Part shown: positions 27,437 through 45,401 of the stretch, in pieces
How positions within the stretch are numbered: the stretch's first letter is position 1
Layout: every line of letters begins with the position of its first letter
Source of the DNA: a virus
Virus record (IMG/VR): IMGVR_UViG_3300025141_000025
Span: 104,486 to 168,485 of that record
Length of the DNA: 64,000 nucleotides
Strand: one strand, 5' to 3'
The notes under the pieces: model-generated
What the model was told of the DNA's origin: nothing
The model's database searches: none
The model's input: only the letters and a program-made list of their open reading frames with translations
Position numbers and translations under genes: made by a program

Positions 27437-27667
27437 TCATACTATCTCCAATTCACACTCATGAAACCACTCTGGGTCATTTTGTAACTCCGGTAGCATT
27501 GCCAAGACAGCCATTCCGGTTGGGTTCATTTCCAACGTAATAGACTTATGACCTCGTGCCGGCTTGACCTCGAGAACTAAGCCTGGCGCATCGCAGTAAC
27601 CTTGCGACCACACCACCAAATCACCAACGTTAATCTGTTCTTTTCCCACCCAGTTACGAAATCCCAT
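27437..27667 (-). CDS. MKVGDLV-family protein
   Basis: NVGDLV...ELEIV. Confidence 0.7.
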   Translation of the reverse strand: MGFRNWVGKEQINVGDLVVWSQGYCDAPGLVLEVKPARGHKSITLEMNPTGMAVLAMLPELQNDPEWFHECELEIV

Positions 27668-28016
27668 TTTTTACCTCTTTTAGTTTTTTCTCTAAAAGAG
27701 ATTCAAATGTTTCAGATTCGTTGTTCACGGATTCCAAAATGAGGCAATCTTCAAATCCACCATTTTTATCTTTTTTATCTTGGGCAGCAAACACAACATC
27801 ACAAAAGTTGATGTTGTGTAATTTCAAAATTGTAAGAAAAACTTCGTATATGTCACCTGCCTCTTCTAAGCATGGTGTATCAATAAACTCATCAAATTCT
27901 TCACGCAGCTTTTCATATAAACGAAGTTTAAATTCATCATGTTCGGCCACATGATATTCACATGTCTTCCCATCTCTTTCAATGATTTTAGGGATGTAAT
28001 CTCTAACGAGTTTCAT
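27654..28016 (-). CDS. MazG-like / PRA-PH-like NTP pyrophosphohydrolase
   Basis: KLVRD.IP.II, KLREE..E, EEAGDIYEV, K.GGF. Confidence 0.75.
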   Translation of the reverse strand: MKLVRDYIPKIIERDGKTCEYHVAEHDEFKLRLYEKLREEFDEFIDTPCLEEAGDIYEVFLTILKLHNINFCDVVFAAQDKKDKNGGFEDCLILESVNNESETFESLLEKKLKEVKNGIS

Positions 28017-28200
28017 GAATAATCATAGCCTCATCAGAAAATATTGTTTCAATATCGCCGGAATCCCACAGAACATCAACCCGTGAAGGAACAATTTCAT
28101 TGCCCTCCCAAATTTCATCCATTTTAACAACCATACCCCAGCTATCTAATCGTGTAAGATACATTTCGTCGGTGTAGGCAATTAGATCTCCAATTTTCAT
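28003..28200 (-). CDS. MKVGDLV-family protein
   Basis: MKIGDLI. Confidence 0.7.
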   Translation of the reverse strand: MKIGDLIAYTDEMYLTRLDSWGMVVKMDEIWEGNEIVPSRVDVLWDSGDIETIFSDEAMIIHETR

Positions 28201-28466
28201 CTGTTGTTTTTCTCAAAATATGACGGCGCCAATACAATAACAATTGTTACAATTCCCATAATCACAAAAATCATCCCATCAGTTGGAACTTGCGATGCAG
28301 CAATATCAGCTGCCTGAGTTATGTCATGGTAAAATTTCCACATTAAATTACCCCCACACCATCCATCCTACAATCGATCCAATTATAATTCCAAAAAGAA
28401 ACACAGATAAAAGCTGTCCTGCGTAGTACCTTGTTTCCGCAGTTCTCAATTCTTCAGCCAAATCTT

Positions 28467-28721
28467 TCATGAAATAACCTCCAGGTCATGAGCCTTAAAA
28501 TATTCAGGTAAACTATCAGTCCAACAAACCATCACTCGGTCTTGTTTTCCATTCTTTGTTGGACCATATCCATCAACCATTCCTGGTCTAATACATTTTC
28601 CGCGAGGGATTTTCTTGTAAATCTTGAATGCCTGTCCCGCTCCGTAGTAGTCAACATCAATTTTTTCGACGATCCCGCAGCGGCCAGTCGTTACTTCCCT
28701 AACCAGGTCACCGACTTTCAT
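28467..28721 (-). CDS. MKVGDLV-family protein
   Basis: MKVGDLV...LEVIS. Confidence 0.7.
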   Translation of the reverse strand: MKVGDLVREVTTGRCGIVEKIDVDYYGAGQAFKIYKKIPRGKCIRPGMVDGYGPTKNGKQDRVMVCWTDSLPEYFKAHDLEVIS

Positions 28722-28799
28722 AGTATGTACGACAATATAACCAGAATCGCCGATATCATCCCTGCAATACTAATGTTTTTAGTTATGCAGATCTTTTTC

Positions 28800-28985
28800 T
28801 TACATTGCTTCATTAATCACCATACACGCGTCTGCATCCCACCAATCCTCACCCCACTCTCCCATGACCATAACTGCAGTGTCACCAGTGGGCATGCTGG
28901 GTTCGTCCCCCACGTGTTTGACGACTTTGATCGCAATTGCGTAACCTTCGCCCTGAGGTAGTCTGATCAGGTCACCGACTTTCAA
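28800..28985 (-). CDS. MKVGDLV-family protein
   Basis: MKVGDLI. Confidence 0.7.
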   Translation of the reverse strand: MKVGDLIRLPQGEGYAIAIKVVKHVGDEPSMPTGDTAVMVMGEWGEDWWDADACMVINEAM

Positions 28986-29257
28986 TCGTTTACCTCAATC
29001 TCAGTGGTACAAGTCCTGAGCACATCAAAATCCACATCTAACCAAATCTCGGTCGGCTCATCAGAGTCCTTCATTTTGCAAAACCACTGTGTACGCATTT
29101 CTACGTCATTGTGGGGAAACTGCATGCCTAGCACATGCGTCCCGGCTGGATCTACTGATTGGACAAAACGATCTTCATACACACTCCTGTTACGACCCGA
29201 TGCGTTTGTCACAAGGTGCATGATTCCCGGTGTGTTAGTTACTGTTGCTTTCATCAA
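28982..29257 (-). CDS. Hypothetical protein
   Basis: Coupled ORF. Confidence 0.55.
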   Translation of the reverse strand: MMKATVTNTPGIMHLVTNASGRNRSVYEDRFVQSVDPAGTHVLGMQFPHNDVEMRTQWFCKMKDSDEPTEIWLDVDFDVLRTCTTEIEVND

Positions 29258-29426
29258 TTACCTCTAATCGCCAGTTATACGTAAATTGTTCTTCACAGTC
29301 AAAAGTAGGCCATGAAACTTTAACACGATAAGTTACACTGTCATGAATGTTAGGATCACACCAAGTTATGATACCCGGGCCGCCCGCATGCCCAACTTTA
29401 CGCTTCACCAAATCGCCCACTTTCAT
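29235..29426 (-). CDS. MKVGDLV-family protein
   Basis: Start moved to MKVGDLV. Confidence 0.7.
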   Translation of the reverse strand: MKVGDLVKRKVGHAGGPGIITWCDPNIHDSVTYRVKVSWPTFDCEEQFTYNWRLEVIDESNSN

Positions 29427-29504
29427 ATTGACATCAAAATCATCGTACCGATTGTGCCTATGATGGTAAAGGCTAAACCCCAACCAAAGACGTAGTAAAT
29501 CATA

Positions 29505-29744
29505 TTACGAACCCGCATTTAGCACCTCGCAACTATCTTCGTGAACCATGGTTGTCTTAGTACCAAACATTACATACCAGTAGTTGTCGTCGGTGATCGT
29601 CACGTTCCCAAACGCCGTGTACTTGCCGTAGAGCCCCAGCAGCTCCACGTCGAAGACCAGGGTGCCGTAGGGGCCACCGGGCCGCCCGACCACAATGCCA
29701 AAATCCTTGCCCCACTTGTGTTTAATTAAATCACCGACTTTCAA
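29505..29744 (-). CDS. MKVGDLV-family protein
   Basis: TTG start KVGDLI. Confidence 0.65.
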   Translation of the reverse strand: MKVGDLIKHKWGKDFGIVVGRPGGPYGTLVFDVELLGLYGKYTAFGNVTITDDNYWYVMFGTKTTMVHEDSCEVLNAGS

Positions 29745-29796
29745 TCCATGTTCTCCATGTAACATAACATAAAGAAGAATACTAGTAGCAACAATA

Positions 29797-30006
29797 TCAT
29801 GCTAGCACCTCCAATGCGGTATACGCTAGGGGATGTTCATATCCTCCGAGTTGCGGAAACATAACTTTCGGTGTGCCATAACTGCTAATGCTCACGATGA
29901 TACCCAACTCGCCCTTGATCTTATGCTCCATGCGAATAGCGATATCATTTTCTACCCGTGAAGTTTTGGGTTGAAAAATGCATTTGACGAGGTCACCGAC
30001 TTTCAA
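29797..30006 (-). CDS. MKVGDLV-family protein
   Basis: TTG start KVGDLV. Confidence 0.65.
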   Translation of the reverse strand: MKVGDLVKCIFQPKTSRVENDIAIRMEHKIKGELGIIVSISSYGTPKVMFPQLGGYEHPLAYTALEVLA

Positions 30007-30217
30007 CAGTATACCACCCAGGAGCGTCATTTGACGTCTTGCTAAGATGAATGATTCGATTACCCATGGGTTTTAGAAAATCCTGGTGAATCTGATCGTA
30101 TCCAGAATATCCCTTTGACTGTAGAATCACATCTGCAGGTAGAGAAATTTTACCTTCCTCATAATACGAAATGTCAAAATTGTAACATTGCTCTCTGTCC
30201 AAATAAATTTGTTTCAC
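29993..30217 (-). CDS. Hypothetical protein ending in junction peptide ESR
   Basis: Coupled ORF. Confidence 0.5.
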   Translation of the reverse strand: MKQIYLDREQCYNFDISYYEEGKISLPADVILQSKGYSGYDQIHQDFLKPMGNRIIHLSKTSNDAPGWYTVESR

Positions 30218-30408
30218 TTGAGTACCTCCGCAGTTCTTTTGAGCATGTGTTCAGTCATCCAAGTGTAGCCATTAGCGCATGGTGTATCTTTCAGGACATC
30301 ACCAAGAACATGAAGGCTCATTGATGTATACCCACCCTCCTCAGAGGTTTCAAGAATTAAGGCAATCGCCCCAGTCTTATTGAACTTTACCAGGTCACCG
30401 GTTTTCAT
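30214..30408 (-). CDS. MKVGDLV-family protein
   Basis: MKTGDLV. Confidence 0.7.
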   Translation of the reverse strand: MKTGDLVKFNKTGAIALILETSEEGGYTSMSLHVLGDVLKDTPCANGYTWMTEHMLKRTAEVLK

Positions 30409-30602
30409 GATCTTGTCGTCTTCTCCGCTCGACATACCTCATCAGCCTCGAGGCGACGTTTCATCTCGCAACCTTCTTCGTAACTGTTAACAGGACAGAG
30501 CATACCGCCGCCAACAAAGTACCACCCATCCTTTCGCTGGGTGACTCGATAGGGACCGTCGGTATCGAATGATACGCCATCTGTGAATGTCAGTTTACTC
30601 AT
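30405..30602 (-). CDS. Hypothetical protein, paralog of 31798..31992
   Basis: DGWY.VG.GMLCPV. Confidence 0.65.
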   Translation of the reverse strand: MSKLTFTDGVSFDTDGPYRVTQRKDGWYFVGGGMLCPVNSYEEGCEMKRRLEADEVCRAEKTTRS

Positions 30603-30946
30603 TACGCAGCACGCTCTTCAAACTTTGCCATGTACACCTCCTTAAACCAGGCATCGTGCCCGGCCTTGGTGGTGGGATACCCATCCTGCTTGAGCCACTT
30701 CTTGATGTGGGGGAGGAGATAGCCCGTCGACTCAGCAATGTTGAGGGGACCCTTGCCAGCATCCAGCTCAGCGAAGTAATCCTCGACCGTCCAGTTCTTT
30801 CGAAGGTGAGTCATGAAAGAACCGATGCCACCCACGCGCTTGAACCGAGCCACGAACTTGGCATCAGGGGCATAGGGGTTGCCGGTCGGGCTGTAGAAGA
30901 CGTACGCCCCGTCTTTGACGAGATTCTCTTTAGTGAAGCGAGTCAT
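30602..30946 (-). CDS. Hypothetical phage protein
   Basis: Start moved to MTRFTKEN after hairpin leader. Confidence 0.65.
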   Translation of the reverse strand: MTRFTKENLVKDGAYVFYSPTGNPYAPDAKFVARFKRVGGIGSFMTHLRKNWTVEDYFAELDAGKGPLNIAESTGYLLPHIKKWLKQDGYPTTKAGHDAWFKEVYMAKFEERAA

Positions 30947-30990
30947 GTTTTTCCTTTGTCTTTCGGGGGCCATCCCCACCAGACATTTAT

Positions 30991-31019
30991 ATTATACCAC
31001 AGTAAGGGGAGACTTACAC
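30991..31019 (-). promoter_or_regulatory. Class A promoter
   Basis: GTGTAA-N17-TATAAT. Confidence 0.8.
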
Positions 31020-31036
31020 AGAACCGCATAAACTTG

Positions 31037-31216
31037 CTAATTTGTGTTTATGGATTTAAGTTGTAAATCTGAATACCATCCTACTTCATAGGGGGTTGAG
31101 CAAACAACTTCATACATCGACCATCCATCCTCGCATAGAAGAATATCGGTAACGATACCCACCATTTCCACTGTATAAAGCGGTGAGTCATATTGTACTA
31201 AATCACCGATTTTCAC
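31037..31216 (-). CDS. MKVGDLV-family protein (not in ORF track)
   Basis: GTG start KIGDLVQYDSP, 59 aa. Confidence 0.65.
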   Translation of the reverse strand: MKIGDLVQYDSPLYTVEMVGIVTDILLCEDGWSMYEVVCSTPYEVGWYSDLQLKSINTN

Positions 31217-31427
31217 TTATCACCTGCATTTCAGCCCCGTAAAGCCTCCACTCACCTACATCAAACAGTACAGACCAATACCCTGCGGAATGTTTTACTC
31301 CCTTTTCATTCAATCTTTCAATTATGACACCTATTCGATTGCTGCCATGCGCGCAAAAAAAACAAAAACAATGGGGATCACCAACACAATGAGGGTCTTG
31401 GGCCTCTATAAGATCACCGACTTTCAT
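31203..31427 (-). CDS. MKVGDLV-family protein with Cys/His insert
   Basis: MKVGDLI; HCFCFFC; ends ISENR. Confidence 0.7.
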   Translation of the reverse strand: MKVGDLIEAQDPHCVGDPHCFCFFCAHGSNRIGVIIERLNEKGVKHSAGYWSVLFDVGEWRLYGAEMQVISENR

Positions 31428-31608
31428 AGTATCTTTTCCAGGCTCTTTCAAAAGCATAATGGCATATAGTCAACAGGGCGTGAAGAAATACTGTAATGCC
31501 TGTTGCAGACTTTATATCTCCCGTAACAGCGCTGACAACAATTAAAGTTATCATGATAGAAATTAGTCGCCACAAGGCAACTTTTTTTGCCAAATTATCG
31601 ACTTTCAC
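31414..31608 (-). CDS. DUF2061-like small membrane protein
   Basis: K..LWRLIS...HYAFERAW. Confidence 0.55.
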   Translation of the reverse strand: MKVDNLAKKVALWRLISIMITLIVVSAVTGDIKSATGITVFLHALLTICHYAFERAWKRYYESR

Positions 31609-31798
31609 TTATCACACTGATCCATTTTTCATGCATGTCAACAATTCTTTTTTCATAGGGGTCATACATTTCGTACAGTCGACCCAGTACAACCCCTGTA
31701 GGGTTAGGGATGTTATTTTCTCGCCCGGGATCTTCCCCAATAATCAAATACACACCCGCTTGTGCAGGTTTCACCGTAACGAGATCGCCGATATCCAT
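31595..31798 (-). CDS. MKVGDLV-family protein
   Basis: MDIGDLV...ISESR. Confidence 0.7.
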   Translation of the reverse strand: MDIGDLVTVKPAQAGVYLIIGEDPGRENNIPNPTGVVLGRLYEMYDPYEKRIVDMHEKWISVISESR

Positions 31799-31992
31799 TA
31801 GTCGCAAACAGCTTCGTTTTTCAAACGATCGATTGATCGCATTTCAGCGATCACTTGCTGACCTTCATCGTAACCCCTAACAGGGCACAACATTCCTTTA
31901 CCAACAACGTACCACCCATCATGACGATGTGTTAGATGATAATCGCCTGTCGTTTCAAACTCAATTCCGTCACTAAGCCTAATTTTTTCCAC
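31798..31992 (-). CDS. Hypothetical protein, paralog of 30405..30602
   Basis: DGWYVVGKGMLCPV. Confidence 0.65.
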   Translation of the reverse strand: MEKIRLSDGIEFETTGDYHLTHRHDGWYVVGKGMLCPVRGYDEGQQVIAEMRSIDRLKNEAVCD

Positions 31993-32105
31993 GAGCGAAC
32001 CTCTTTTTATTTCTATATTCTCGATATCTCAACCATAATTCAGCAGGTAAAAGTACCGGTAAGCACAAAATTAAACATGCCATGATAAGACCTGACAAAA
32101 CATAA

Positions 32106-32303
32106 TCACCGATCCGCATTGATAACCTCTAGTGATCTTACACTAACACCTTCAAATACCTGTGTGCCAAAGATAACAGTGGCGACCTGAAATGGAAACA
32201 TTGGAGTGGGCTCTGATAGTTCTGATATCACGCCAACACTTTTATCATTTGTCATCCACAAATCATATCCCCTTTGAAACCTAACAAGATCACCAATTTT
32301 CAT
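32106..32303 (-). CDS. MKVGDLV-family protein
   Basis: MKIGDLV...LEVINADR. Confidence 0.7.
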   Translation of the reverse strand: MKIGDLVRFQRGYDLWMTNDKSVGVISELSEPTPMFPFQVATVIFGTQVFEGVSVRSLEVINADR

Positions 32304-32587
32304 GGTATGCTTACACCTTTTCTGATCACATCAAATTCACTCCTGCAATTGTGAATATTGACGCCGGCGTAGCCATGTTTCTCATTATATTGTCTAGGTG
32401 GGTCGGTCGACCATTCAATCAAAACATTACGTTGGTGTCCCCAATTATCGAGATGGATGTCTAACACAATCCCTACATGTTTCTTGCTTTTATTATGACA
32501 TTCACATACGGGACCCACACCAGCCTGACACGTGACAACCAACATGTCACCAATTTGAGGCATTCTACTTTGTCTTTTTAGGACCAT
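32300..32587 (-). CDS. MKVGDLV-family protein
   Basis: QIGDML...GIV. Confidence 0.6.
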   Translation of the reverse strand: MVLKRQSRMPQIGDMLVVTCQAGVGPVCECHNKSKKHVGIVLDIHLDNWGHQRNVLIEWSTDPPRQYNEKHGYAGVNIHNCRSEFDVIRKGVSIP

Positions 32588-33444
32588 ACACCTGTCGCTT
32601 CCGAACTGTAATATTCAATATTGTTAGATTTGTTATCAAGTACAACTACTGCATAACCGCTTGAATTTCCTAATCCCGCCTGTATTCTTGTATTTCGATC
32701 GACAGTGCAATCACACATTAAATGAGGAATTCCTGCGCGCAGCATAAGTCCATGTCCATTTAGACGATTATCGTGACCATGAACAATGTATTGTACACCC
32801 ATCTTCTTGAAAATACGGGCACCTGCATCCGTTAATGGGTAATCTCTTTCTCTGTATTTAGTGCGAAAAACGGTGCCAAACGGACCATAATAAAAGCTAT
32901 AAAGACCCTCTTTGTCATTTTTTTGTTCTAAAAATTTTGCCTGTAAAATGTCAGGTGTAATTTTTTTCATGGCTACTGCCAGTTCATCACCAACACCTGC
33001 ATGAACAAAAAGGGCACCGTTATCGTAATGAAATAGATACAATGATTCAAAAAACCATCCAAATTTTCCGGATGGATTCAAGAACATTTCCTTCGCGGCG
33101 TCGATGCCTCCACACTCATCAAGAAAAGGCGTAATTCTTTTTTTGTATCTCTTAGGGGTAAAAATTTTTTCTAGTCGAGGGTCTGATTGGTTCTCCCAAT
33201 TTTGTAGCACCATCAACATGCGCAAGTCGTGATTTCCAGCGAGGAGCTTTACTTCAACCCGTTCAGATAGTTTTTTGATTTCAGAAAGTAGTTTAAGATT
33301 GCTAGGACCTTTATCTAAACAATCTCCCCCAATGAGATATAACGCATCTTCATCATCACAGTATTGCAGTGATTTAACAAATGCGTCTCGATCAGCATGT
33401 AAATCAGTAAAAAAATAAGTTTTTCTTTTTACAAGCGTGTTCAT
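32578..33444 (-). CDS. Calcineurin-like metallophosphoesterase
   Basis: DLH, GDCLDKG, GNHD, FVHAG, HGHD. Confidence 0.8.
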   Translation of the reverse strand: MNTLVKRKTYFFTDLHADRDAFVKSLQYCDDEDALYLIGGDCLDKGPSNLKLLSEIKKLSERVEVKLLAGNHDLRMLMVLQNWENQSDPRLEKIFTPKRYKKRITPFLDECGGIDAAKEMFLNPSGKFGWFFESLYLFHYDNGALFVHAGVGDELAVAMKKITPDILQAKFLEQKNDKEGLYSFYYGPFGTVFRTKYRERDYPLTDAGARIFKKMGVQYIVHGHDNRLNGHGLMLRAGIPHLMCDCTVDRNTRIQAGLGNSSGYAVVVLDNKSNNIEYYSSEATGVWS

Positions 33445-33463
33445 CAGAGTTTCAAACCCTTAC

Positions 33464-33730
33464 TCACCATTCCCAGCCCATTAGGGCACAAACTTCCTGG
33501 AAAAAGTCATCGTAATGTCCAGGGTAGTTATAATCACGGATTGACTGCCACTTGATTCCATCTCCATTTTCATCAACTTCAATAGGATCCCCACAGTAGA
33601 CCGCTTCGCCGCCGTCCCCGCCATTCGCCATGTCGGCGTATTGCCATTTAACCTCCCTGAGCATTGAGCTGTTCGGGACACTTTCTTCCATCACCTTATA
33701 ATGAAGCACAGTTTCTAATGCTGATTTCAT
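33464..33730 (-). CDS. Hypothetical protein
   Basis: ORF track. Confidence 0.55.
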   Translation of the reverse strand: MKSALETVLHYKVMEESVPNSSMLREVKWQYADMANGGDGGEAVYCGDPIEVDENGDGIKWQSIRDYNYPGHYDDFFQEVCALMGWEW

Positions 33731-33877
33731 TTAGCACTCCACACACTGGTCGGTACAAACGTCATGTTCAGTTTTCTCTTCACAACCATGACAATAAGTA
33801 ACGTAGTATTCATCATTTCCGCCACGATCCTCATCATGACAGTCATCATCGTAGTGATCATAATTTGACCAACCCAT
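33731..33877 (-). CDS. 48-aa acidic zinc-finger-like peptide (not in ORF track)
   Basis: CHGC...HDVC...CVEC; GGAG SD. Confidence 0.55.
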   Translation of the reverse strand: MGWSNYDHYDDDCHDEDRGGNDEYYVTYCHGCEEKTEHDVCTDQCVEC

Positions 33878-33886
33878 TATTTTCTC

Positions 33887-34099
33887 CTATTTACCAAAAA
33901 TTTGAATCATGTGTAGAATGTTGGGGTGCGCAGTAGCCTTCCAGCCCTTAAGCATTCCGATCAGCTTTACAGCGCTATCGGTGCTCTCCTGGTTCTGGAA
34001 AGTAACAAGCCAGCCATCAGTTCCGCCTAGCTCTTCCACGCCACCAAAAGCCTTGATGATGTGATTGACTGCTTTGACCGGGGCATCTGGATACGTCAT
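33887..34099 (-). CDS. Hypothetical protein
   Basis: AGGAG SD. Confidence 0.6.
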   Translation of the reverse strand: MTYPDAPVKAVNHIIKAFGGVEELGGTDGWLVTFQNQESTDSAVKLIGMLKGWKATAHPNILHMIQIFGK

Positions 34100-34111
34100 C
34101 TTCTTTTCTCC

Positions 34112-34369
34112 TTAGGTTAGTTCGACCGAGTTCGTTTCGCCACCCATCAGTTTCCGTGTACCGTTTACCGGCGGGTAAACCTTTTTCGGCCAAGCATCAC
34201 GCTCCTCACCACCAAAGACAGCGCGTTCGACTGCGATAACATATCGATCGCAGCCACCGTGAGGCTCGATTCCAATAACTTCGCCTTCCACATAACAGGC
34301 TCGTTCACCTGTAAGGTCGCGACAATAATCGAAATCAAAGGAGCGAACTTTAGAACCGACTTGAATCAT
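34112..34369 (-). CDS. SH3-like hypothetical
   Basis: Start moved to MIQVGSKV after hairpin leader. Confidence 0.65.
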   Translation of the reverse strand: MIQVGSKVRSFDFDYCRDLTGERACYVEGEVIGIEPHGGCDRYVIAVERAVFGGEERDAWPKKVYPPVNGTRKLMGGETNSVELT

Positions 34370-34413
34370 GATTTTTCCTTGTCTTTCGGAGTCCATCCCC
34401 TCGAGACATTAGT

Positions 34414-34442
34414 ATTATACCACAAGATAAGCTTGCTTACAC
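34414..34442 (-). promoter_or_regulatory. Class A promoter
   Basis: GTGTAA-N17-TATAAT. Confidence 0.8.
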
Positions 34443-34454
34443 AGAAGTGGTTGA

Positions 34455-34610
34455 TTATTGTAATTTTATCATTTGTGGAAGCACATAACCATAATCATCA
34501 GAACTCTCCCACCGAACCAGGATCGTTCCCTGGAATGCTTGAAAACTGATAATCACTCCTTTTCCAAGGGACGGATTGTTTTTGTGGATAACGATATCAC
34601 CGATTTTCAT
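34455..34610 (-). CDS. MKVGDLV-family protein (not in ORF track)
   Basis: MKIGDIVIHKNNPSLGKGVII, 51 aa. Confidence 0.65.
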   Translation of the reverse strand: MKIGDIVIHKNNPSLGKGVIISFQAFQGTILVRWESSDDYGYVLPQMIKLQ

Positions 34611-34857
34611 TGTAATTAAATCCCACTTTTGTTAGTTCACTTTCATACGCGTGAAAATCAACATCTTCACACAACACATCAAAAACCTTCTCACCTAAAA
34701 GCTCTGCTTCAACTGGACCTTCTCCAAACTCGTATTCTTTTATCACAAGCATGGGGGTTTTATTTTTTGCACAGTTTTTCAGCCACAAGGTGTGATCTCT
34801 TCTTATCGCCGATATTTTAAATCGAACTAAATCACCAGTTTTTATAAAATGTTTCAA
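34597..34857 (-). CDS. MKVGDLV-family protein
   Basis: KTGDLV...NENR. Confidence 0.65.
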   Translation of the reverse strand: MKHFIKTGDLVRFKISAIRRDHTLWLKNCAKNKTPMLVIKEYEFGEGPVEAELLGEKVFDVLCEDVDFHAYESELTKVGFNYNENR

Positions 34858-34958
34858 GCTTATAGTCCCAAAAAACGAAATGGAAAAGTTATGACCGTGA
34901 ATGCGAGCTTTATGATTGCAAAAAACGATTCAATAAAAAATCTTAAAATATTCATGAT

Positions 34959-35156
34959 CTAAACTACCTCCTCAAGCCAGTCTTCCGGAACATTATGCGT
35001 TTCTTGTTTTGTCACCCAAAACACAGTGCATCCTCTCATCGTGTACTCCGTCGGATGAGGACCATTCATAACAACTCCAATGCCTTCAGATGCACCACGT
35101 CTCCAACTGTATTTTGATGATGGTCCTTTCATTTGAACTAGATCACCGGCTTTCAT
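34959..35156 (-). CDS. MKVGDLV-family protein
   Basis: MKAGDLV. Confidence 0.7.
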   Translation of the reverse strand: MKAGDLVQMKGPSSKYSWRRGASEGIGVVMNGPHPTEYTMRGCTVFWVTKQETHNVPEDWLEEVV

Positions 35157-35159
35157 GGG

Positions 35160-35360
35160 TTACCTTCGAAACCTGTCCGGTCCACACACATACACTTTTC
35201 TCCCAGTATCTACATCTATCATAACTTCACACCTCTCTCCTCGCCAATTGGTAGGTCGATTCGAGCTGGTAGCACTTCTTCCGACACTGGGGTAGCGAAC
35301 ATACCAGGAGCAACCCGAAAACAGAGTCAAGACAATTATCACAACGACTAGCTTCTTCAT
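35160..35360 (-). CDS. Small lipoprotein
   Basis: LFSGC lipobox. Confidence 0.6.
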   Translation of the reverse strand: MKKLVVVIIVLTLFSGCSWYVRYPSVGRSATSSNRPTNWRGERCEVMIDVDTGRKVYVCGPDRFRR

Positions 35361-37587: not shown

Positions 37588-37629
37588 TGTTAGCTCCTAA
37601 TTCGGGGGGCATCCCCAACCAACATTTAT

Positions 37630-37658
37630 ATCATATCACATAAATTGCGATGTTACAC
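37630..37658 (-). promoter_or_regulatory. Class A promoter variant
   Basis: GTGTAA-N17-TATGAT with hairpin leader. Confidence 0.7.
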
Positions 37659-37664
37659 AGGAAG

Positions 37665-38570
37665 CTAAAAATTGTTCAAATAATTCGTATATTTTTGAGG
37701 AGGATTGCCATGAAAGAGAAAAACTAAGGCATGATTACCGATTTTTCCATGGGACCAGGCGCCTGTAAGCACATGTGAAACAGCTTTATGAGAATACTTT
37801 TTGTGCTTTTTTCTCCACTTTACATAGCTTTTCCATGGCTTTTGCCACTTGTCAGTGAGAATGATTAATTTAAGTTGATCCTTTCTAACATGATGACCAA
37901 CACACCCTCTCCACGTTCTTTCCAGCCACCTGCCATATGTTGCATCTGAAAATAAAACAGTCTTTGGATTAACGGCGCACAAATCCCCAACAACAGATGC
38001 AGAAGCAATTGCAGAGCCACCCGCTGAGTGTCCCACAAAGTGCCTTCGAAATTTAATTTGTTTCTTGTAGATGTATTGTGTAATTGTTTCCGCCTCATCA
38101 ACCATGTTAACAAGTTGATTTTTTCTTAGAAAGATTCTGCCCTGCCTACCTCTTGGGGTTGTTGTATAATGACTCCATGGCAACTCAGGAACAATAAGCA
38201 CAACATCTTTACCTAATTTCTTTCTAATATATTCATATTGAGGCATCAATCTTTTTGAAAATGTTTTTTTACTAAAACCATTTAAACCATGAAACCAATA
38301 AACCACATCAACTTCTGTCGTGCTTTTAGAAATTTTAGGTAACATCATCATCACTTGTCTTTTTAGAAACTTATGACGAACATCACGTTTTCCAATTGAC
38401 TCAAATGTCGAGACGAGTAAAAAACCACAAAATTTTCGTGACAATAGTTCATTTTTTGCGATATTGGCAACTTGGGCAGTTTTTGGATTGTCGACGATAA
38501 AAGTAAATGTGCAGGCTAACGCTGCCTGCACACTTGAAAAATACAATAAAACTGCAAAAATGTATTTCAT
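37665..38570 (-). CDS. Secreted alpha/beta hydrolase
   Basis: Start moved to signal peptide MKYIFAVLL; WFHG, GHSAGG, SDATY, H. Confidence 0.65.
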   Translation of the reverse strand: MKYIFAVLLYFSSVQAALACTFTFIVDNPKTAQVANIAKNELLSRKFCGFLLVSTFESIGKRDVRHKFLKRQVMMMLPKISKSTTEVDVVYWFHGLNGFSKKTFSKRLMPQYEYIRKKLGKDVVLIVPELPWSHYTTTPRGRQGRIFLRKNQLVNMVDEAETITQYIYKKQIKFRRHFVGHSAGGSAIASASVVGDLCAVNPKTVLFSDATYGRWLERTWRGCVGHHVRKDQLKLIILTDKWQKPWKSYVKWRKKHKKYSHKAVSHVLTGAWSHGKIGNHALVFLFHGNPPQKYTNYLNNF

Positions 38571-38574
38571 GACA

Positions 38575-38814
38575 TCACTTATTTCTCTTTTTCTTTTTTG
38601 TATTGTTCTTTTCTTGCACTTTTTGTAAATTTCGATAATGCACTGTGAAACAACTGTCAGCATCACGACGTCGAACCTTTGCTTGGGTTCCTTCATTTTT
38701 CAAAATTTTATTTCGCTTTGCATCGGCTTCATCAAATGTATCAAACTTGCCTGCAAGAATCCATGCCTTTCCAAACATGTTGCCTATTTTTTCGTTCGTC
38801 TTTTTCTTACCCAT
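38575..38814 (-). CDS. Basic hypothetical protein
   Basis: ORF track. Confidence 0.55.
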   Translation of the reverse strand: MGKKKTNEKIGNMFGKAWILAGKFDTFDEADAKRNKILKNEGTQAKVRRRDADSCFTVHYRNLQKVQEKNNTKKKKRNK

Positions 38815-38826
38815 AAAAAATCACCC

Positions 38827-39111
38827 TTACTCTAAAATCTTATCTGCAATCTTTTTTGCACAGTCTTTTCGCGTAGTCTCTGATGCCAAGTTCAATTGTT
38901 TATCTGACATTTCATTTAGGCATATCATAATCTTGTGTTCCAGAGCATCTGGTTGTAACAATTTTTCAAGCCTATTACATTTATTTTCAAGCTCTACAAA
39001 AGTGTGTTTGAGAGAGACATAATCCCAGCACGCTTCAGCTAGTTCCCTTTCAACACGATCCAGTTTTTCTAGCTTTTGCTTTACCTCTTGTAAGTTATTC
39101 ATTTTTTCCAC
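38827..39111 (-). CDS. Coiled-coil hypothetical
   Basis: ORF track. Confidence 0.5.
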   Translation of the reverse strand: MEKMNNLQEVKQKLEKLDRVERELAEACWDYVSLKHTFVELENKCNRLEKLLQPDALEHKIMICLNEMSDKQLNLASETTRKDCAKKIADKILE

Positions 39112-39619
39112 CCTTAAAATTAATCATTCTGTCGATATAGAGAATTCCGTCTAGGTGATCACATTCATGTTGAATTACGCCTGCTAAAGGCCAACCAATA
39201 ATGACTTCATGCATTTTACCCGTTAAATCCTGATATGACAGTTTTAATCCTGTACTTCTCACCACTTCTCCAAAATAGCCTGGAACAGAAAGACATGCTT
39301 CGTTCCACTTTGTTGAATCACCCAAAAAATCCATGACAGGATTTATTATCACAATGTGATCACGATACAAATTAAAATGTGCAGCCTCAGAAGGATCAAC
39401 AAATCCTGGAAAATTTGCACAAATTACAACAACTCTTTTTGTAACACCTACCTGCGGTGCTGCCAATCCAATTCCATTTTGTTGTTTAAGCGTATCAATT
39501 AGGTCATCAACCAAGTTCTTGCAAAAGTTAGTTTCAAAATTAATGACACTATCCGAAATGACATTTAAGTTTTCGTCAGGATATGTCAATATCTTTTTGA
39601 TCACCAATTTTTGCCTCAT
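39095..39619 (-). CDS. def: Peptide deformylase
   Basis: GIGLAAPQVG, EACLS, QHECDHLDG. Confidence 0.92.
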   Translation of the reverse strand: MRQKLVIKKILTYPDENLNVISDSVINFETNFCKNLVDDLIDTLKQQNGIGLAAPQVGVTKRVVVICANFPGFVDPSEAAHFNLYRDHIVIINPVMDFLGDSTKWNEACLSVPGYFGEVVRSTGLKLSYQDLTGKMHEVIIGWPLAGVIQHECDHLDGILYIDRMINFKGGKNE

Positions 39620-39655
39620 TTAAATGATATAAATTATCGACTCAAATTACAAAAT

Positions 39656-40708
39656 TTACAGCCCTAATTTAGATATTTTTTTCAATGCCTCATGCTGGTC
39701 GCTGTTTAAAGAATCAGGAACCTCGACAATAATTGTCACAAAATGATCGCCCTGTCCAGGTACCCTTAATTTTGAAATACCCTTTTTGGCTAATCTAAGT
39801 GTAGTTCCTGACTGTGTGCCGGCTGGCAAAACAATTTTTTCATTGCCATGTAAAGTTTCAACCTCGACTTTTGTCCCCAAAGCAGCATCGCTAAATTTAA
39901 CTTTTGCAGTTGAATATATATTTGACCCCTCTCTTTTGAAACGTGGATGGGTGCCTACAGCAACATGAATATAAACATCCCCTCTGTGGCCTCCAGGACC
40001 AGCTTCGCCTTCACCCGAAATCTTTATTCGAGAATCAGCGTTTACACCAGCTGGTATGTTCACGTTAATTGTACATTCTTCAATTCCGGCCCCGGCACCA
40101 TTACAGTCGTCACACGGGGTTTCGGGAAAGATGCCATGACCGTTGCATGCCTGACATGTCATTTGAATGATAAAGGAACCTTGCTGATGTTGGATATTAC
40201 CTGCTCCGCCACACGAACTACACGAAACACTTCGAGTGCCCGGCTTTTCACCGGAGCCTTTACACGTTGTACATACACCTTGTCGTTTGAATGTAACGGT
40301 TTGTGTGCAGCCGAATGCAGCTTCTTCAAAGGTTAGTTGCAGATTACCTTGCAAATCAGCGCCTTTTTGACTTCGGTGACCCCTTTTTGACCTACCAAAA
40401 ATATCGCCAAACATATCACCGAATCCGCCAAAAATGTCTTCAAACCCACCGAATCCTCGGTTGTGACCCGACCGCTGTGTAGATCGAGGACCGGTGTGAC
40501 CAAATTGGTCATACTCTTTTTTCTTTTCGGGATCCCCCAGGACGGCATATGCCTCTGAGCATTGTTTGAATATCTCCTCAGCTTCTTCATTGTCGGGATT
40601 TTTATCAGGGTGATACTTGTGTGCCATTTTACGATAAGCACTTTTAATTTGCGATACATTTGCACTTTTATCCAGACCAAGAATATTATAATAATCTGAT
40701 TTTTTCAT
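39656..40708 (-). CDS. dnaJ: Chaperone DnaJ
   Basis: HPD J-domain, G/F region, four CxxCxGxG. Confidence 0.95.
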   Translation of the reverse strand: MKKSDYYNILGLDKSANVSQIKSAYRKMAHKYHPDKNPDNEEAEEIFKQCSEAYAVLGDPEKKKEYDQFGHTGPRSTQRSGHNRGFGGFEDIFGGFGDMFGDIFGRSKRGHRSQKGADLQGNLQLTFEEAAFGCTQTVTFKRQGVCTTCKGSGEKPGTRSVSCSSCGGAGNIQHQQGSFIIQMTCQACNGHGIFPETPCDDCNGAGAGIEECTINVNIPAGVNADSRIKISGEGEAGPGGHRGDVYIHVAVGTHPRFKREGSNIYSTAKVKFSDAALGTKVEVETLHGNEKIVLPAGTQSGTTLRLAKKGISKLRVPGQGDHFVTIIVEVPDSLNSDQHEALKKISKLGL

Positions 40709-40730
40709 ATTATGCTTACCCTAATATAGA

Positions 40731-40764
40731 ATTTCCCGGGGTTCAAACTTGAACCCCGGGAAAT
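40731..40764. terminator. Perfect 16-bp inverted repeat between dnaK and dnaJ
   Basis: ATTTCCCGGGGTTCAA-AC-TTGAACCCCGGGAAAT. Confidence 0.7.
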
Positions 40765-40784
40765 AAATGACGTGCTAATACGTC

Positions 40785-42647
40785 TTACACAAATTCAGCA
40801 TCAATTACATCATCGTTTGGCGGTGGCGAATTGTCCGGTTGCTCATCATCCGACGTCGTATCATATGCCTGCTTTGCGATTTGTTGCAACACATCATTCA
40901 GCGTAGAAAACGCATCATCAAGTTCTGACTTTGTATCACATGCAAGCTTTGCCTCTGCAGCAGAAACCGCTGTATTGATAGCCGAAACATCCTCATCAGA
41001 CAATTTGTCACCAAGTGCTTCTGTGGAGTTTTTCGCCTGATGTATCAGGTTGTCCAGCATGTTTCTTGATTCGACAACTGCCTTCTTCTTTTGATCCTCA
41101 GCCTCATATTTAGATGCGTCCTTTACCATTTGATCAATTTCAGTATCTGACAGGCCACTTGAGTTTGTAATTGTGATCTTTTGATCCTTACCTGTTGCCT
41201 TATCAACTGCTGCAACCGTCAAGATTCCATTTACATCAATGTCAAAAGTAACTTCAATTTGTGGAACACCCCGGGGTGCAGGAGGAATACCATCCAAAGT
41301 GAAACGGCCCAAGGTTCTGTTGTCGCCCGCCATTTCTCTTTCTCCCTGCAGGACATGTATATCAACTTGCATCTGATTATCAGCTGCCGTTGAAAAGACC
41401 TCAGACTTCTTCGTGGGAATAGTCGTATTCCTAGGGATCAGTTTTGTTGTGACTGATCCCATTGTCTCAATCCCTAGGCTAAGTGGAGTTACATCGAGCA
41501 GGAGCATATCCTTGACATCACCTGTAAGGACACCTCCTTGCACGGCGGCACCTAATGCCACAACCTCATCAGGGTTGACGCCTTGATGTGGAGATTTGCC
41601 AAAGAATTTTTCAACCTTCTGCATAACCAAAGGAATTCGTGTAGACCCACCGACCAAAATAACCTGGTCAATGTCAGTCGCCTTCTTTCCTGCATCTTTC
41701 AGCGCTTGCTTGCAAGACTTAAATGTCTTATCCACGATCCCATCAGCCAGCTGCTCAAATTTAGAACGACTAATCGAACATGTCAAATGCTTAGGACCGG
41801 TAGCATCAGCTGTCAAGAAAGGCAAATTAATGTCTGAAACCTGTGTAGAACTCAGTTCAATCTTTGCCTTCTCAGCTGCTTCACGAATTCTTTGCATAAC
41901 CATTGAGTCACCGCTGACATCCAGCCCTGCCTGTTGTTTAAATTCCTCTAGCAAATGATCGATCAAAGCTTCATCGATATTATCACCGCCAAGATATGTG
42001 TCACCGCTCGTAGATAAAACCTCTACAACATCACCACTTACCTCCAAAACAGAAACATCAAATGTACCACCACCGAAATCGTAAACAGCCACAAGTTGTT
42101 CACTCTTGGCACCTAGGCCATAAGCCAGGGCCGCTGCTGTAGGCTCATTGATGATTCGTTTGACGTTCAATCCGGCAATCTTACCGGCATCCTTAGTGGC
42201 CTGTCGTTGACTGTCATTGAAATACGCCGGAACCGTAACCACAGCTTCGGTGACAGGTTCGCCAAGATACTTCTCAGCAGCTCTCTTTAGCTTCTGGAGC
42301 ACCTTAGCGCTAATCTCCGGTGGTGAATAAACCTTGCCGTCAACATTGATACAGGCGTCACCTGCCGCATTCGCAGTTACATCAAAGGCAACCTTCTCAG
42401 CGGCATTTTTTACCTCATCAAGCTTTGACCCGATGAACCGTTTGGCGGAATAGATGGTTTTATCAGGATTTACGACTGCTTGCCGGCGTGCTGTCACCCC
42501 AACAAGAACATCATTATCGTTAAAAGCAACGACTGATGGTGTCGTTCGACTACCCTCCTCATTGACAATTACATGAGGTTCTCCTCCCTCAACAATTGCA
42601 ACGCACGAGTTTGTCGTGCCCAAATCAATACCAATAATCTTACTCAT
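40785..42647 (-). CDS. dnaK: Chaperone DnaK (Hsp70)
   Basis: [31 protein letters not shown]. Confidence 0.97.
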
Positions 42648-42719
42648 TTTTTATCTCCTTGTTATAAAGCGAGTATCATAAAAGCTAAGCCCCAAGTGGC
42701 AGCTTTACCTTGTAAATTG

Positions 42720-42748
42720 ATTATAAAACATTCATATAATTTTTTCAA
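42720..42748 (-). promoter_or_regulatory. Sigma70-like promoter upstream of dnaK
   Basis: TTGAAA-N17-TATAAT. Confidence 0.6.
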
Positions 42749-42751
42749 AAC

Positions 42752-42940
42752 TCATGGACGATTACATTCAACGACGACCTCCAGGTCCTCATCATGATAC
42801 CACAAGCTCGCAGAGTCCCATTGCACGTGAACGCTGAGATTGTCAGGATCATATTTCTCAATCTGAATCACGATGCCTACACCTCCGTCAACAGACATAC
42901 ATGCACCTTCAGTGCATCTTACCAGGTCACCTACTTTCAT
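42752..42940 (-). CDS. MKVGDLV-family protein
   Basis: MKVGDLV. Confidence 0.7.
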   Translation of the reverse strand: MKVGDLVRCTEGACMSVDGGVGIVIQIEKYDPDNLSVHVQWDSASLWYHDEDLEVVVECNRP

Positions 42941-43121
42941 GAATAACCCTTAGCCTGTCAACGGCGTACTTTATAGTGATACCTCCAAAATTCACTAGTG
43001 CCGCCCCGCCCGGATAGCCTTTTTCGTTTGTAATTTCAATCACAATTCCTGGCCGGGTTTCCCATACGTGCCCCTTCATGGTTTCTCTTAGGCCGAGCCT
43101 TACTAAATCACCCGGTTTCAC
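42927..43121 (-). CDS. MKVGDLV-family protein
   Basis: MKPGDLV...IHESR. Confidence 0.7.
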   Translation of the reverse strand: MKPGDLVRLGLRETMKGHVWETRPGIVIEITNEKGYPGGAALVNFGGITIKYAVDRLRVIHESR

Positions 43122-43351
43122 TTGTGGTGCCTATTTTGTGCATTTATCATGCTAAGATAGTCGTGATACCCTGTAAAATCCATGATTGATCCGCTGTTGA
43201 ACATTACTAAAAATGAATGATCGGAAATTTCTATAACCAACCCAACTTTATTAAAGTGCGTCCATTCAATCGGATTAAAATCAGGAGACAGCGGTTTTCC
43301 GCCATCTAAGATAACCAAATCTCCAATACTGATTTTTTGACTAGTTTGCAA
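43118..43351 (-). CDS. MKVGDLV-family protein
   Basis: SIGDLV. Confidence 0.6.
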   Translation of the reverse strand: MQTSQKISIGDLVILDGGKPLSPDFNPIEWTHFNKVGLVIEISDHSFLVMFNSGSIMDFTGYHDYLSMINAQNRHHK

Positions 43352-43579
43352 TTAAAGAGCTAATGAAAAAACATCAGCCTGGTTATAAATTCTATTTTCA
43401 GAATTGCTTAAGTGAACATGCACAAGCGACCATTTTTTGTTGTATTTTTGAATGTCAATAACAATACCAAATATATTTTCATCCATCTGTGGCTTGAGGG
43501 GCCACGCTGTGCATTTGACAATACTACCAATTTTAATATTGTTATTCACTATATCAACGCCATAAACCTTTTTCTTCAT
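43352..43579 (-). CDS. MKVGDLV-family protein
   Basis: KIGSIV...GIV. Confidence 0.55.
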   Translation of the reverse strand: MKKKVYGVDIVNNNIKIGSIVKCTAWPLKPQMDENIFGIVIDIQKYNKKWSLVHVHLSNSENRIYNQADVFSLAL

Positions 43580-43633
43580 TCCAAATAAATAAGATGATTC
43601 CTGTTATCGGAATTAGCAAACCCAATAACTCCA

Positions 43634-44563
43634 CTAGGCCACCTTTGACATGGAACAAAAGTCATCACGATATTTGAACAATGCCAATTCCTTAGCCTTA
43701 CACTCGAGCACAACATCAGTAGGCTCGTTATACGACTCAAATGGTGTATAAAACCACGTGCTGTGCGCCATTTTATTGGCGGTGTGATCCTCGTACCGCC
43801 GGCGGCTGTTGCTATGGTGACACTGTTGCTTGATACCAACTGGCCACGTACCTCGTGCTAGATAATATGAATCATGATAGTCAAAATCCTGTGGGCCAAT
43901 CTCGAAATGATGCGAGTCAAATACGATAGGAATGCCAATACGACTGTATACACCATCATGCAGCATTTTGGTAGAATACAGGTTAGGTTTATCATCGTTT
44001 TCGACAGTGAGACGACACTGTGCCGAAGGTGAGAGACGTTTGAAATTGTCGCAAAATCGAGCCAACGCCTTTTCATGTTCACCATATGCACCACCTACAT
44101 GAATATTAATTTTAGCGCCTGGTGTGTTTGGCATACCAAGCATATCCATAATTTGTGCAGTTTGATCAAGTTCACGAAGAGACTTAGCAACGGTCGACTC
44201 ATTTGGACTAGCCAGGACGCAGAATTGACCTGGATGAAATGAAAGACGTTGACCACAGGAGCGAGCAATTTGTCCCGCCTCAGCAAGCGTATTTGCAATT
44301 TCTTGATAGTCAGGAAGATCTGTGATTTCGTATTCTGACATCCATGGAAACAAGCAGGACGTAACCCGGTATACACTGATGTCGTTCTTGTTGTTCCAGT
44401 CAACAACAGCACGAAGCCCTTTGACATTTGACAGTGCTAACATACTGGCATAGGGCATGCCCTTGGCCAGCCACGTACGGTTAATCATACCTCGATTGCA
44501 CATAATTTTAGACTGCTTTTGTAGCGTGGTATTAATGCACGCATAACCTAAATTAACTGACAT
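43634..44563 (-). CDS. uvsE: UV DNA damage endonuclease
   Basis: LGYACIN, RLSFHPGQF, IHVGG, VENDDK, FDSHH. Confidence 0.92.
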   Translation of the reverse strand: MSVNLGYACINTTLQKQSKIMCNRGMINRTWLAKGMPYASMLALSNVKGLRAVVDWNNKNDISVYRVTSCLFPWMSEYEITDLPDYQEIANTLAEAGQIARSCGQRLSFHPGQFCVLASPNESTVAKSLRELDQTAQIMDMLGMPNTPGAKINIHVGGAYGEHEKALARFCDNFKRLSPSAQCRLTVENDDKPNLYSTKMLHDGVYSRIGIPIVFDSHHFEIGPQDFDYHDSYYLARGTWPVGIKQQCHHSNSRRRYEDHTANKMAHSTWFYTPFESYNEPTDVVLECKAKELALFKYRDDFCSMSKVA

Positions 44564-44595
44564 ATTTCGACCTGCTTTTTTGTGTATTGTATAAA

Positions 44596-44624
44596 ATTAT
44601 ATCATAATTTGGTGCGTATTACAT
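44596..44624 (-). promoter_or_regulatory. Class A promoter variant
   Basis: ATGTAA-N17-TATAAT. Confidence 0.65.
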
Positions 44625-44629
44625 GCGTT

Positions 44630-44839
44630 TCATGTTGGCATAAAATCTTTTTTTCCGGCCTTTTCTACGAGCTGTGCTCTCACACGAATAGGTTGCCCCT
44701 CATACAAGATAGTAGCTGCCTTGTTTAAACTGTCGTATTCAACTAAGAGACCAATTCGTTTCTTAGGCGTAGTTGACCAATCATTTACATCTACAATATC
44801 TAACCATTCAGCAAATCTAACGATGTCACCTGGCCTCAA
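44630..44839 (-). CDS. MKVGDLV-family protein
   Basis: TTG start RPGDIV. Confidence 0.65.
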   Translation of the reverse strand: MRPGDIVRFAEWLDIVDVNDWSTTPKKRIGLLVEYDSLNKAATILYEGQPIRVRAQLVEKAGKKDFMPT

Positions 44840-45017
44840 CAACGGTCTCCAAGTCTCGTATACGCAATGTTGTTCTTTGATGTGTGCACCCTGGCGCCCA
44901 AAGCACATTAACTAATCCAATTGAGGGGTGTGCCTTACCTCGTTTGATATTGAGCACAATACCTAACTCATCGTCTCGTCCGTCAAAACGATGCCTGACC
45001 ATGTCACCGACTTTCAT
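44826..45017 (-). CDS. MKVGDLV-family protein
   Basis: MKVGDMV. Confidence 0.7.
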   Translation of the reverse strand: MKVGDMVRHRFDGRDDELGIVLNIKRGKAHPSIGLVNVLWAPGCTHQRTTLRIRDLETVVEAR

Positions 45018-45262
45018 TCTGCCTCCGCAAATAAGCTGATATCTTCTTCAAAGTCGGCATCGTCATACCACTGTGCCCAATCCTCAATGGCCTTGCTCCA
45101 CCCAACGTCTTCGATGTCGTCAAGCCAAGTAATTTGAACTCCGTGTGGTTCCTTCAGCGCCATCCCGGACGGGCTCTCCTGCTTAATGTCAGTGATCACC
45201 CCCAGGCCGCCATTTTCCCATGAAGTGTGATTTACGTATTGTACCATATCACCGACTTTCAT
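45014..45262 (-). CDS. MKVGDLV-family protein
   Basis: MKVGDMV. Confidence 0.7.
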   Translation of the reverse strand: MKVGDMVQYVNHTSWENGGLGVITDIKQESPSGMALKEPHGVQITWLDDIEDVGWSKAIEDWAQWYDDADFEEDISLFAEAE

Positions 45263-45401
45263 TTATCACCTCTAGTTCATTTTCAAAACGATTGCTATAA
45301 ACGCCATCAGCCCATTGAACACGAAACATATCACTTCGAATAGACACAATCAACCCGAGCATGTCATTAGCTTTAAATTTTACCAAATCGCCAACACTCA
45401 T
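45249..45401 (-). CDS. MKVGDLV-family protein (not in ORF track)
   Basis: MSVGDLV...LEVINESR, 50 aa. Confidence 0.65.
   Translation of the reverse strand: MSVGDLVKFKANDMLGLIVSIRSDMFRVQWADGVYSNRFENELEVINESR

Follow-up and report, generated by a model that had tools for sequence, protein, structure and literature searches.

What does a short sequence that recurs at the borders of neighbouring small genes do for the phage that carries it? We addressed this question in a 64,000-nt stretch of viral DNA, positions 104,486 to 168,485 of the IMG/VR virus record IMGVR_UViG_3300025141_000025 (the window, whose positions are used throughout). An array of about 31 mini-genes lies on its minus strand (Table 1), as does every other gene of the window, with products of 50-90 amino acids that begin with M-K-V/I-G-D-L-V, and these genes are joined by a recurrent sequence, here called the junction. 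A preliminary description, made from the letters and the open reading frames (ORFs), had proposed that this element provides ribosome-binding site, start, stop and microhomology in an array resembling an integrase-free cassette system. We found that the junction is read in more than one frame, is conserved at the nucleotide level, and contains crossover points of gene exchange in relatives of this phage. As a whole, these data are best explained if the junction is both a shared boundary carrying several signals and the crossover joint of the mini-gene arrays, and we regard this explanation as probable.

Anatomy and copies of the junction

The junction appears to be the boundary shared by SH3-like mini-genes that form an amplified family in marine T4-like phages. 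It spans about 35 nt, with the consensus TTGGAGGTnATnA-(A/G)TGAAAGTCGGTGAT-TTGGT, and is read in several ways at once. The last structural residues of the upstream protein, L-E-V, spell a ribosome site, GGAGG, which precedes the start codon by 6 nt. MKVGD of the downstream protein is encoded in the start region, and the same bases in the +2 frame give the tail of the upstream protein, (N/S)-E-S-R, plus a TGA stop. In the +1 frame, the A that follows ATG or GTG also yields TGA. Since a stop is thus present in both non-zero frames of the start region, an upstream gene in either frame ends atop the next start. The dual reading as MKVGD and (N/S)ESR-stop had been given in the preliminary description and is correct, and so is its assignment of the LEV codons to the ribosome site: a logo built from 877 distinct family starts of related loci reads T-G-G-A-G-G-T at -12 to -6, although a GGAG or GAGG core is present at just 12 of the 31 family starts of the window.

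This arrangement suggests translational coupling by termination and restart, in which ribosomes finishing one gene would restart on the next, giving chains of ten or more genes behind one promoter. The GGTGAT of codons 4-5 (+9 to +14) repeats GAGGTGAT of the upstream ribosome site (-9 to -2), as seen at window positions 45249-45271. Both the GGTGAT and the repeat in the upstream ribosome site are complementary to the usual 3' end of 16S rRNA. The downstream copy might provide a second anti-Shine-Dalgarno contact at the stop codon, holding the terminating ribosome.

The exact 14-mer, ATGAAAGTCGGTGA, was found five times in the window (28708, 31414, 36612, 45004, and 45249) versus 0 expected, and when up to 3 mismatches were allowed, 29 minus-strand copies were detected, versus 7.7 expected for both strands together. 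At the 31 family starts, the upstream gene ends in GGTGA (+2 frame, 14-nt overlap) at 14 and in ATGA (+1 frame) at nine. The preliminary description listed 15 sites with exact 14-nt overlaps. All 15 are real 14-nt overlaps of ORFs, but the word exact fits their length and not their sequence: the exact 14-mer is present at two (31414 and 45249), ten are 1-3 bases off, one is divergent (44826), and two do not contain the motif (27654 and 28003). At 29993, 31414, 35677, and 44826, the overlap holds only when translation begins at the motif start and not at an upstream start codon.

Related genomes carry the same element. Five carrier contigs (157-293 kb; G001-G005) have a gene for a capsid protein of the T4 Gp23 type (PF07068, E down to 1e-63); each contains 11-25 motif copies, all on one strand, versus 0-1 for the reversed control. 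Most of the junction copies in these relatives are exact, compared with 5 of about 31 in the window, indicating that the phage of the window carries a more decayed joint.

Gene overlaps of 14 nt that lack the motif were also observed, at 31979-31992, 27654-27667, and 28003-28016 (e.g., GTGGAAAAAATTAG). Another candidate, at 37230-37243, was rejected because its 93-aa ORF is apparently spurious, an alternative frame of a 114-aa gene, which ends in TAATG.

Table 1. Junction copies, other 14-nt overlaps and related features of the mini-gene array in the window
Feature	Position	Strand	Remarks
Mini-gene array region	26983..47671	minus	~31 genes, products begin M-K-V/I-G-D-L-V
14-nt overlap, unrelated sequence ATGGGATTTCGTAA	27654..27667	minus	
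14-nt overlap, not the motif (ATGAAACTCGTTAG)	28003..28016	minus	native MKLVRD start of MazG-like gene
Exact motif at 4-nt ATGA overlap	28708..28721	minus	ATGA stops the +1 frame
14-nt junction TTGAAAGTCGGTGA	29993..30006	minus	upstream non-family 74-aa ORF ends TVESR-stop; same neighbours in L078
14-nt junction GTGAAAATCGGTGA, GTG start	31203..31216	minus	
14-nt junction, exact consensus	31414..31427	minus	upstream DUF2061 gene ends YYESR-stop
Decayed junction GTGAAAGTCGATAA	31595..31608	minus	starts DUF2061 gene (MKVDNLAK...)
14-nt junction ATGCGGATCGGTGA	32106..32119	minus	starts 46-aa membrane peptide, not a family barrel
14-nt junction ATGAAAATCGGTGA	34597..34610	minus	
14-nt junction ATGAGAGTCGGTGA	35523..35536	minus	upstream gene ends YEVINESR-stop
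14-nt junction ATGAAGATAGGTGA	35677..35690	minus	
14-nt junction ATGAAGATGGGTGA	35864..35877	minus	upstream gene is a non-family 68-aa ORF
14-nt junction ATGCAAGTCGGTGA	36244..36257	minus	upstream gene ends LEVVNASR-stop
14-nt junction ATGAAAATCGGTGA	36437..36450	minus	upstream gene ends IEVVNENR-stop
Exact motif at 4-nt ATGA overlap	36612..36625	minus	
14-nt junction ATGAAAGTAGGTGA	42927..42940	minus	GTA preserves Arg (AGG) in upstream frame
14-nt junction, divergent TTGAGGCCAGGTGA (LRPGD)	44826..44839	minus	only start codon and GGTGA kept
Exact motif at 4-nt ATGA overlap	45004..45017	minus	upstream gene in the other frame
14-nt junction, exact consensus	45249..45262	minus	upstream gene ends LEVINESR-stop
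Promoter-like 55-62-nt repeat, four copies	30970-31024, 34393-34447, 37609-37663, 46225-46279	minus	

Conservation at synonymous sites

The family genes of the window use AAA for 21 of 24 Lys at codon 2, GTC for 12 of 16 Val at codon 3, and GGT for 26 of 32 Gly at codon 4, compared with gene-body frequencies of.56,.15-.23, and.34-.42, respectively. No synonymous bias was observed at codons 5-8 of these genes. When the 24-nt junction with N at three variable positions was used as a pattern, at least 107 IMG/VR stretches were retrieved, and the GTG-start variant retrieved at least 120. In the related loci, 762 of the 877 family starts were not selected by the search pattern, and at these 762 junctions the frequencies were AAA.81, GTC.74, and GGT.84, compared with.52,.19, and.30 in gene bodies. 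Because the first loci had been found with a GTC/GGT pattern, the scan was repeated with a pattern degenerate at every synonymous site, and 127 array junctions from this codon-blind scan were compared with 46 singleton MKVGDLV genes from non-array loci. GGT was used in 80% of the array junctions but in 24% of the singletons (Fisher p=3e-11), and GTC in 54% and 20%, respectively (Fisher p=6e-5).

Individual positions gave similar information about the nucleotide sequence. The clearest test is position 8, where C was preferred over A (GTC:GTA 68:31, p=1e-4), although either codon yields Val in one reading and Arg (CGG, AGG) in the overlapping one. GTT, which gives Trp in the overlapping frame, was found in 0 of 60 junctions of the 14-nt class, and GTC plus GTA accounted for 53 of the 60. 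The Glu of the upstream L-E-V was encoded by GAG in 314 cases and by GAA in 9, compared with a GAG frequency of.48 in gene bodies; it is this choice that generates TGGAGGT at -12 to -6, the ribosome site. Even at junctions with an unused +2 frame, the enrichment of GGT and GTC persisted (.54-.68).

Conservation at the protein level only, with the MKVGD N-terminus and the LEV C-terminus of paralogues meeting in an overlap that means nothing at the nucleotide level, would be consistent with the finding that protein conservation is highest at MKVGDLV and LEV(I/V). In the family alignment, column identity averages 19% across the mini-gene bodies, M1, G4, and D5 are the sole invariant residues, and L-E-V-(I/V) recurs at the C-terminus across the family. 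An AlphaFold2 model from 29 paralogues (pLDDT 91.6) is a five-stranded small barrel, and this confident model places both MKVGDLV and LEV(I/V) in strands. The top Foldseek ranks of the model were the eS4 KOW domain, Spt5 KOW, PWWP, and Tudor (TM 0.6-0.72, with weak E >= 0.013); we refer to the products as predicted SH3-like small barrels. No match to the family was found in Pfam or PHROGs, and a literature search on MKVGD returned nothing relevant. The synonymous bias contradicts the protein-only explanation, as it is strong, specific to arrays, absent from singleton MKVGDLV genes, and extends to a site that is synonymous in both frames. Amino-acid constraint is, thus, not the explanation of the conservation, and we consider this alternative extremely improbable. 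The nucleotide-level conservation expected from the preliminary description was, in this respect, borne out. The conservation is layered, with contributions from two proteins, the ribosome site, and the stop codon, and a residue that neither protein explains.

That residue also bears on the possibility that selection acts on translation only, through the ribosome site, the AAA second codon, the stop context, and possibly the anti-Shine-Dalgarno GGTGAT, with recombination as an unselected side effect of any repeated 20-mer. The GAG ratio of 314:9 and the AAA frequency of.81 are classic translation signals, and the preserved Arg of the overlapping frame, with its predominant use of GTC and GTA and the lack of GTT, also agrees with this possibility. 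However, choosing C rather than A at position 8 makes no difference to either protein, and the bias remains at junctions whose +2 frame is untranslated. Selection on translation alone would dispute only what is selected and not the exchange at the junction; we find it unlikely.

Breakpoints of gene gain, loss and exchange

Among the related loci, we found 12 non-redundant indels or replacements, each in a comparison of contigs from different metagenomes with 95-100% identity. Both breakpoints were inside the junction in eight of these events, one end was there in two more, and two were elsewhere. The in-junction events showed 13-40 nt of shared sequence and left a seamless hybrid junction. Contigs L004 and L006 differ by a one-gene indel of 176 nt flanked by two identical 20-mers, and L042 and L084 by an indel of 232 nt whose crossover lies within the 14-mer, where the hybrid takes its left part from one copy and its right part from the other. 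A 694-nt indel with the crossover in GTCGGTGA separates L062 from L089, and an indel of one cassette separates L184 from L187. The replacements in the pairs L140/L146, L140/L184, L062/L140, and L026/L042 run from about +20 of one junction to about -12 of the following one, and in L140/L146 two unrelated family genes of near-equal length (about 60 aa) are swapped between flanks that are 98-100% identical. When all loci were analyzed, 33% of internal alignment ends were within -15 to +30 of a family start, versus 6.5% of random positions. The breakpoints of gain, loss, and replacement between near-identical relatives, thus, fall in the junction, where the preliminary description had placed them, and an intact junction is regenerated.

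Since every sequence in these comparisons was assembled from short reads, and the junction forms a 20-40-nt repeat, the indels and swaps might be metagenome assembly errors caused by this repeat. At two of the replacements, contigs 3300037808_002020 and 3300038301_000548, from different samples, share the same structure against 3300020438_000176, which argues against assembly error. Moreover, the replaced cassettes have wholly different bodies between 98-100% identical flanks, and those shared repeats that are only 13-21 nt long fall short of the usual final assembly k-mer sizes. Assembly error as the source of these events is, therefore, quite improbable in our view.

The exchanges suggest a simple mechanism. 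In relatives, the same stretch of about 20-40 nt is present in 10-30 copies along one strand of the genome, and the general homologous recombination of the phage would cross over between them. Each crossover deletes, duplicates, or swaps whole cassettes, with a perfect hybrid junction remaining. The phage's own homologous recombination machinery is, thus, the probable agent of exchange. These exchanges, along with the stacked coding constraints, could also keep the junction uniform at synonymous sites while the bodies diverged to about 25% identity, and we infer that exchange contributes to this uniformity.

Several observations weigh against the junction being the shared boundary and crossover joint in this phage. 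Recombination was observed in relatives with 65-80% identity to the window, and not in this genome. The compared sequences are metagenome assemblies, which are prone to mis-joining at repeats, and whole-gene indels that survive must end near gene boundaries under any mechanism. The ribosome-site core is kept at 12 of the 31 junctions of the window, and coupling is deduced from sequence. Dual coding alone fails to explain the GGT and GTC enrichment where the upstream gene leaves the +2 frame unused. When short Logan contigs from four marine runs were placed on 27000-46999, joints were found at 31225, 34611, 36267, 36460, 36603, 42918, and 45248; all of them touch junction copies, but their short side is 21-31 nt and they may be repeat placements, so they were not counted as evidence. 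Finally, one of the two events located elsewhere shows recombination at a short repeat away from the motif. Contigs L027 (7254-7468) and L048 (2960-2967), which are 99.6-100% identical, differ by a 223-nt indel at 8-nt TTTACATT repeats beside a tRNA-like 3' end. As these repeats are unrelated to the junction, short-repeat recombination appears to be general in these phages and not specific to the motif, and that these phages recombine at any short repeat is a further point for selection on translation alone.

Searches for closer material were negative within their scope, and no close relative of this genome was obtained: nothing in the cultured-phage collection was matched by DNA, by a family protein, or by the 278-aa neighbour, and the 288-aa metallophosphoesterase, used as an anchor, retrieved no relative from viral contigs or metagenome contigs.

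Foreign genes behind the family leader

The preliminary description stated that non-family genes also use the junction, naming a MazG-like gene, a DUF2061-like gene, and the ORF at 29993. The last two do so, the DUF2061 gene with a decayed copy. This gene, at 31608, starts with GTGAAAGTCGATAATTTGGCA, a decayed copy of the first seven codons of the family, and the upstream gene at this site is still stopped, by TAA, at the same offset as the motif stop. Contig L154 carries two DUF2061 genes that bear the family leader, one with the exact 14-mer and the other with the divergent copy GTGAAGCCTAGTGA. Six other DUF2061 homologues have no leader, and their alignment begins only at residue 9, indicating that the family leader was fused to a foreign gene. 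The MazG-like gene, in contrast, keeps its own native start. Acquisition of the junction by this gene was rejected because its homologues start with MKLVRD in every context; its GTTAGA gives TAG at the same offset.

The junction at 32106-32119 had been reported to persist with no family gene after it, and we confirmed this. It precedes a 46-aa membrane peptide that starts with MRIGDYV and continues as a hydrophobic helix, and no barrel remnant was found in the other frames at this ORF (32119). The 46-aa peptide is a family leader on a foreign body.

Foreign genes would, thus, occasionally be captured behind the first 5-8 family codons. Since most cassettes come from one protein family, the array is above all one of family genes, with foreign genes captured now and then, and not a general cassette array. 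The interpretation in the preliminary description is partly supported, for the anatomy and for the exchange in relatives but not for its generality.

Chain heads and folding of the junction

The promoter-like repeat of Table 1 is composed of CTGTGTAA, a spacer of about 13 nt, and TGTGGTATAAT (extended -10-like), followed by GGGGATG. Each copy precedes a non-family gene that heads a mini-gene chain. Its presence only at chain heads fits long polycistronic chains that need coupling. It may be the phage's own version of a promoter-early stem-loop (PeSL) promoter cassette. Two of the chain-head genes were observed to have similar N-termini, MGMAPERQRK and MDSERQGK.

No promoter consensus was found within the junction. 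The mean folding energy of 150 junctions was -14.8 kcal/mol, compared with -15.1 for shuffled sequences, so there is no excess structure. A hairpin that sequesters the ribosome site was, therefore, rejected. The folding result also bears on whether a dedicated site-specific recombinase or homing nuclease recognises the motif and moves cassettes, as IntI does with integron attC. The array-like layout, the orientation on one strand, and the promoter-like element heading each chain would be expected of such a system. However, neither junction RNA nor DNA showed excess folding, and no attC-like hairpin was, thus, seen; the crossover points are spread over the 13-40 nt that the copies share, as they are in homologous exchange; and a Pfam scan of array genes, although not exhaustive, revealed no recombinase. 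A dedicated enzyme is, on this evidence, very improbable.

Neighbouring genes

The array is interspersed with genes for peptide deformylase, DnaJ, DnaK, UvdE, and metallophosphoesterase, and with small ORFans. Host-like genes were located inside the mini-gene region at 39095-42647 and 43634-44563 on the minus strand, coding for peptide deformylase, DnaJ, DnaK, and the UV-endonuclease UvdE. DnaK matched Hsp70 with E 2e-248, and a terminator-like 15-bp hairpin is directly downstream of it, at 40764-40731. A second pair of small paralogues was found at 30405-30602 and 31798-31992, also on the minus strand. They code for 64-65 aa with the motif DGWY-VG-GMLCPV, have 73% nucleotide identity over 81 nt and no Pfam match, and each is followed by a family mini-gene. 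The G+C content was 49-53% at window positions 14001-24000, versus 36-45% in the remaining window.

Discussion

The observations on frames, codons, and breakpoints point to one short stretch that holds four signals in two reading frames and would also act as a recombination joint. Such a junction offers a concrete mechanism for the fast turnover of small ORFan genes in abundant ocean phages. It is common in ocean viral contigs, as each of three pattern scans retrieved more than 100 stretches, which is a lower bound. Should the mini-proteins prove to be host-takeover or anti-defence binders, this joint would serve to diversify them. The junction sequence could, in addition, be a natural template for seamlessly coupled synthetic operons.

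Known systems share parts of this picture. ATGA and TGATG overlaps couple the translation of genes in bacterial and phage operons. As in those overlaps, the upstream stop overlaps the downstream start and the ribosome site is located in the upstream coding sequence; here, however, the overlap is 14 nt, and a single conserved sequence recurs dozens of times and also serves as a recombination substrate. Integrons are also similar in having a chain of small promoterless genes in one orientation, a common promoter, and gain or loss of whole cassettes at a repeated boundary. The junction differs from them because the folding test showed no attC hairpin, the boundary is coding, and the exchange resembles general homologous recombination; the array genes covered by the Pfam scan include no tyrosine-recombinase integrase.

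In T-even phages, leader-mediated swapping at the internal-protein loci, where the shared 5' coding leader is the crossover point, was reportedly described by Repoila and colleagues in 1994. Different bodies are exchanged there behind one leader, and in our arrays the DUF2061 and membrane-peptide genes carry the family leader. The T4 leader is a capsid-targeting peptide that functions at the protein level, whereas here the first five codons also encode the stop of the preceding gene.

PeSL cassettes are known from T4-type phages, where they occupy hyperplastic regions (Arbiol et al. 2010, PMC2839356; Comeau et al. 2014, PMC4122927). Each consists of an early promoter of the sigma-70 type and a terminator hairpin, placed between genes, and mini-circles have been shown for these elements. 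Both PeSLs and the junction are short repeats among small non-essential genes of T4-like phages, and in both, recombination between copies results in the insertions, deletions, and replacements that distinguish close relatives. The carriers of the junction are T4-type by the Gp23 of the five carrier contigs, and the breakpoints are in the repeated element. The junction differs in that it lacks a promoter consensus and a stem-loop, the two defining features of PeSLs, lies inside the coding sequence of both neighbours with a ribosome site, a start, and a stop read in two frames, and links genes that for the most part belong to a single protein family. It is tempting, but still doubtful, to go further and propose that the junction is a selected, self-propagating joint, the counterpart of the PeSL in coding sequence, with which marine T4-like phages would build, reshuffle, and exchange a hypervariable library of small binders, possibly via excised mini-circles, and plug foreign genes, fused to the first five codons, into a coupled operon. 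PeSL-mediated modular shuffling is the closest known system, and the junction is the coding-sequence version of that trick.

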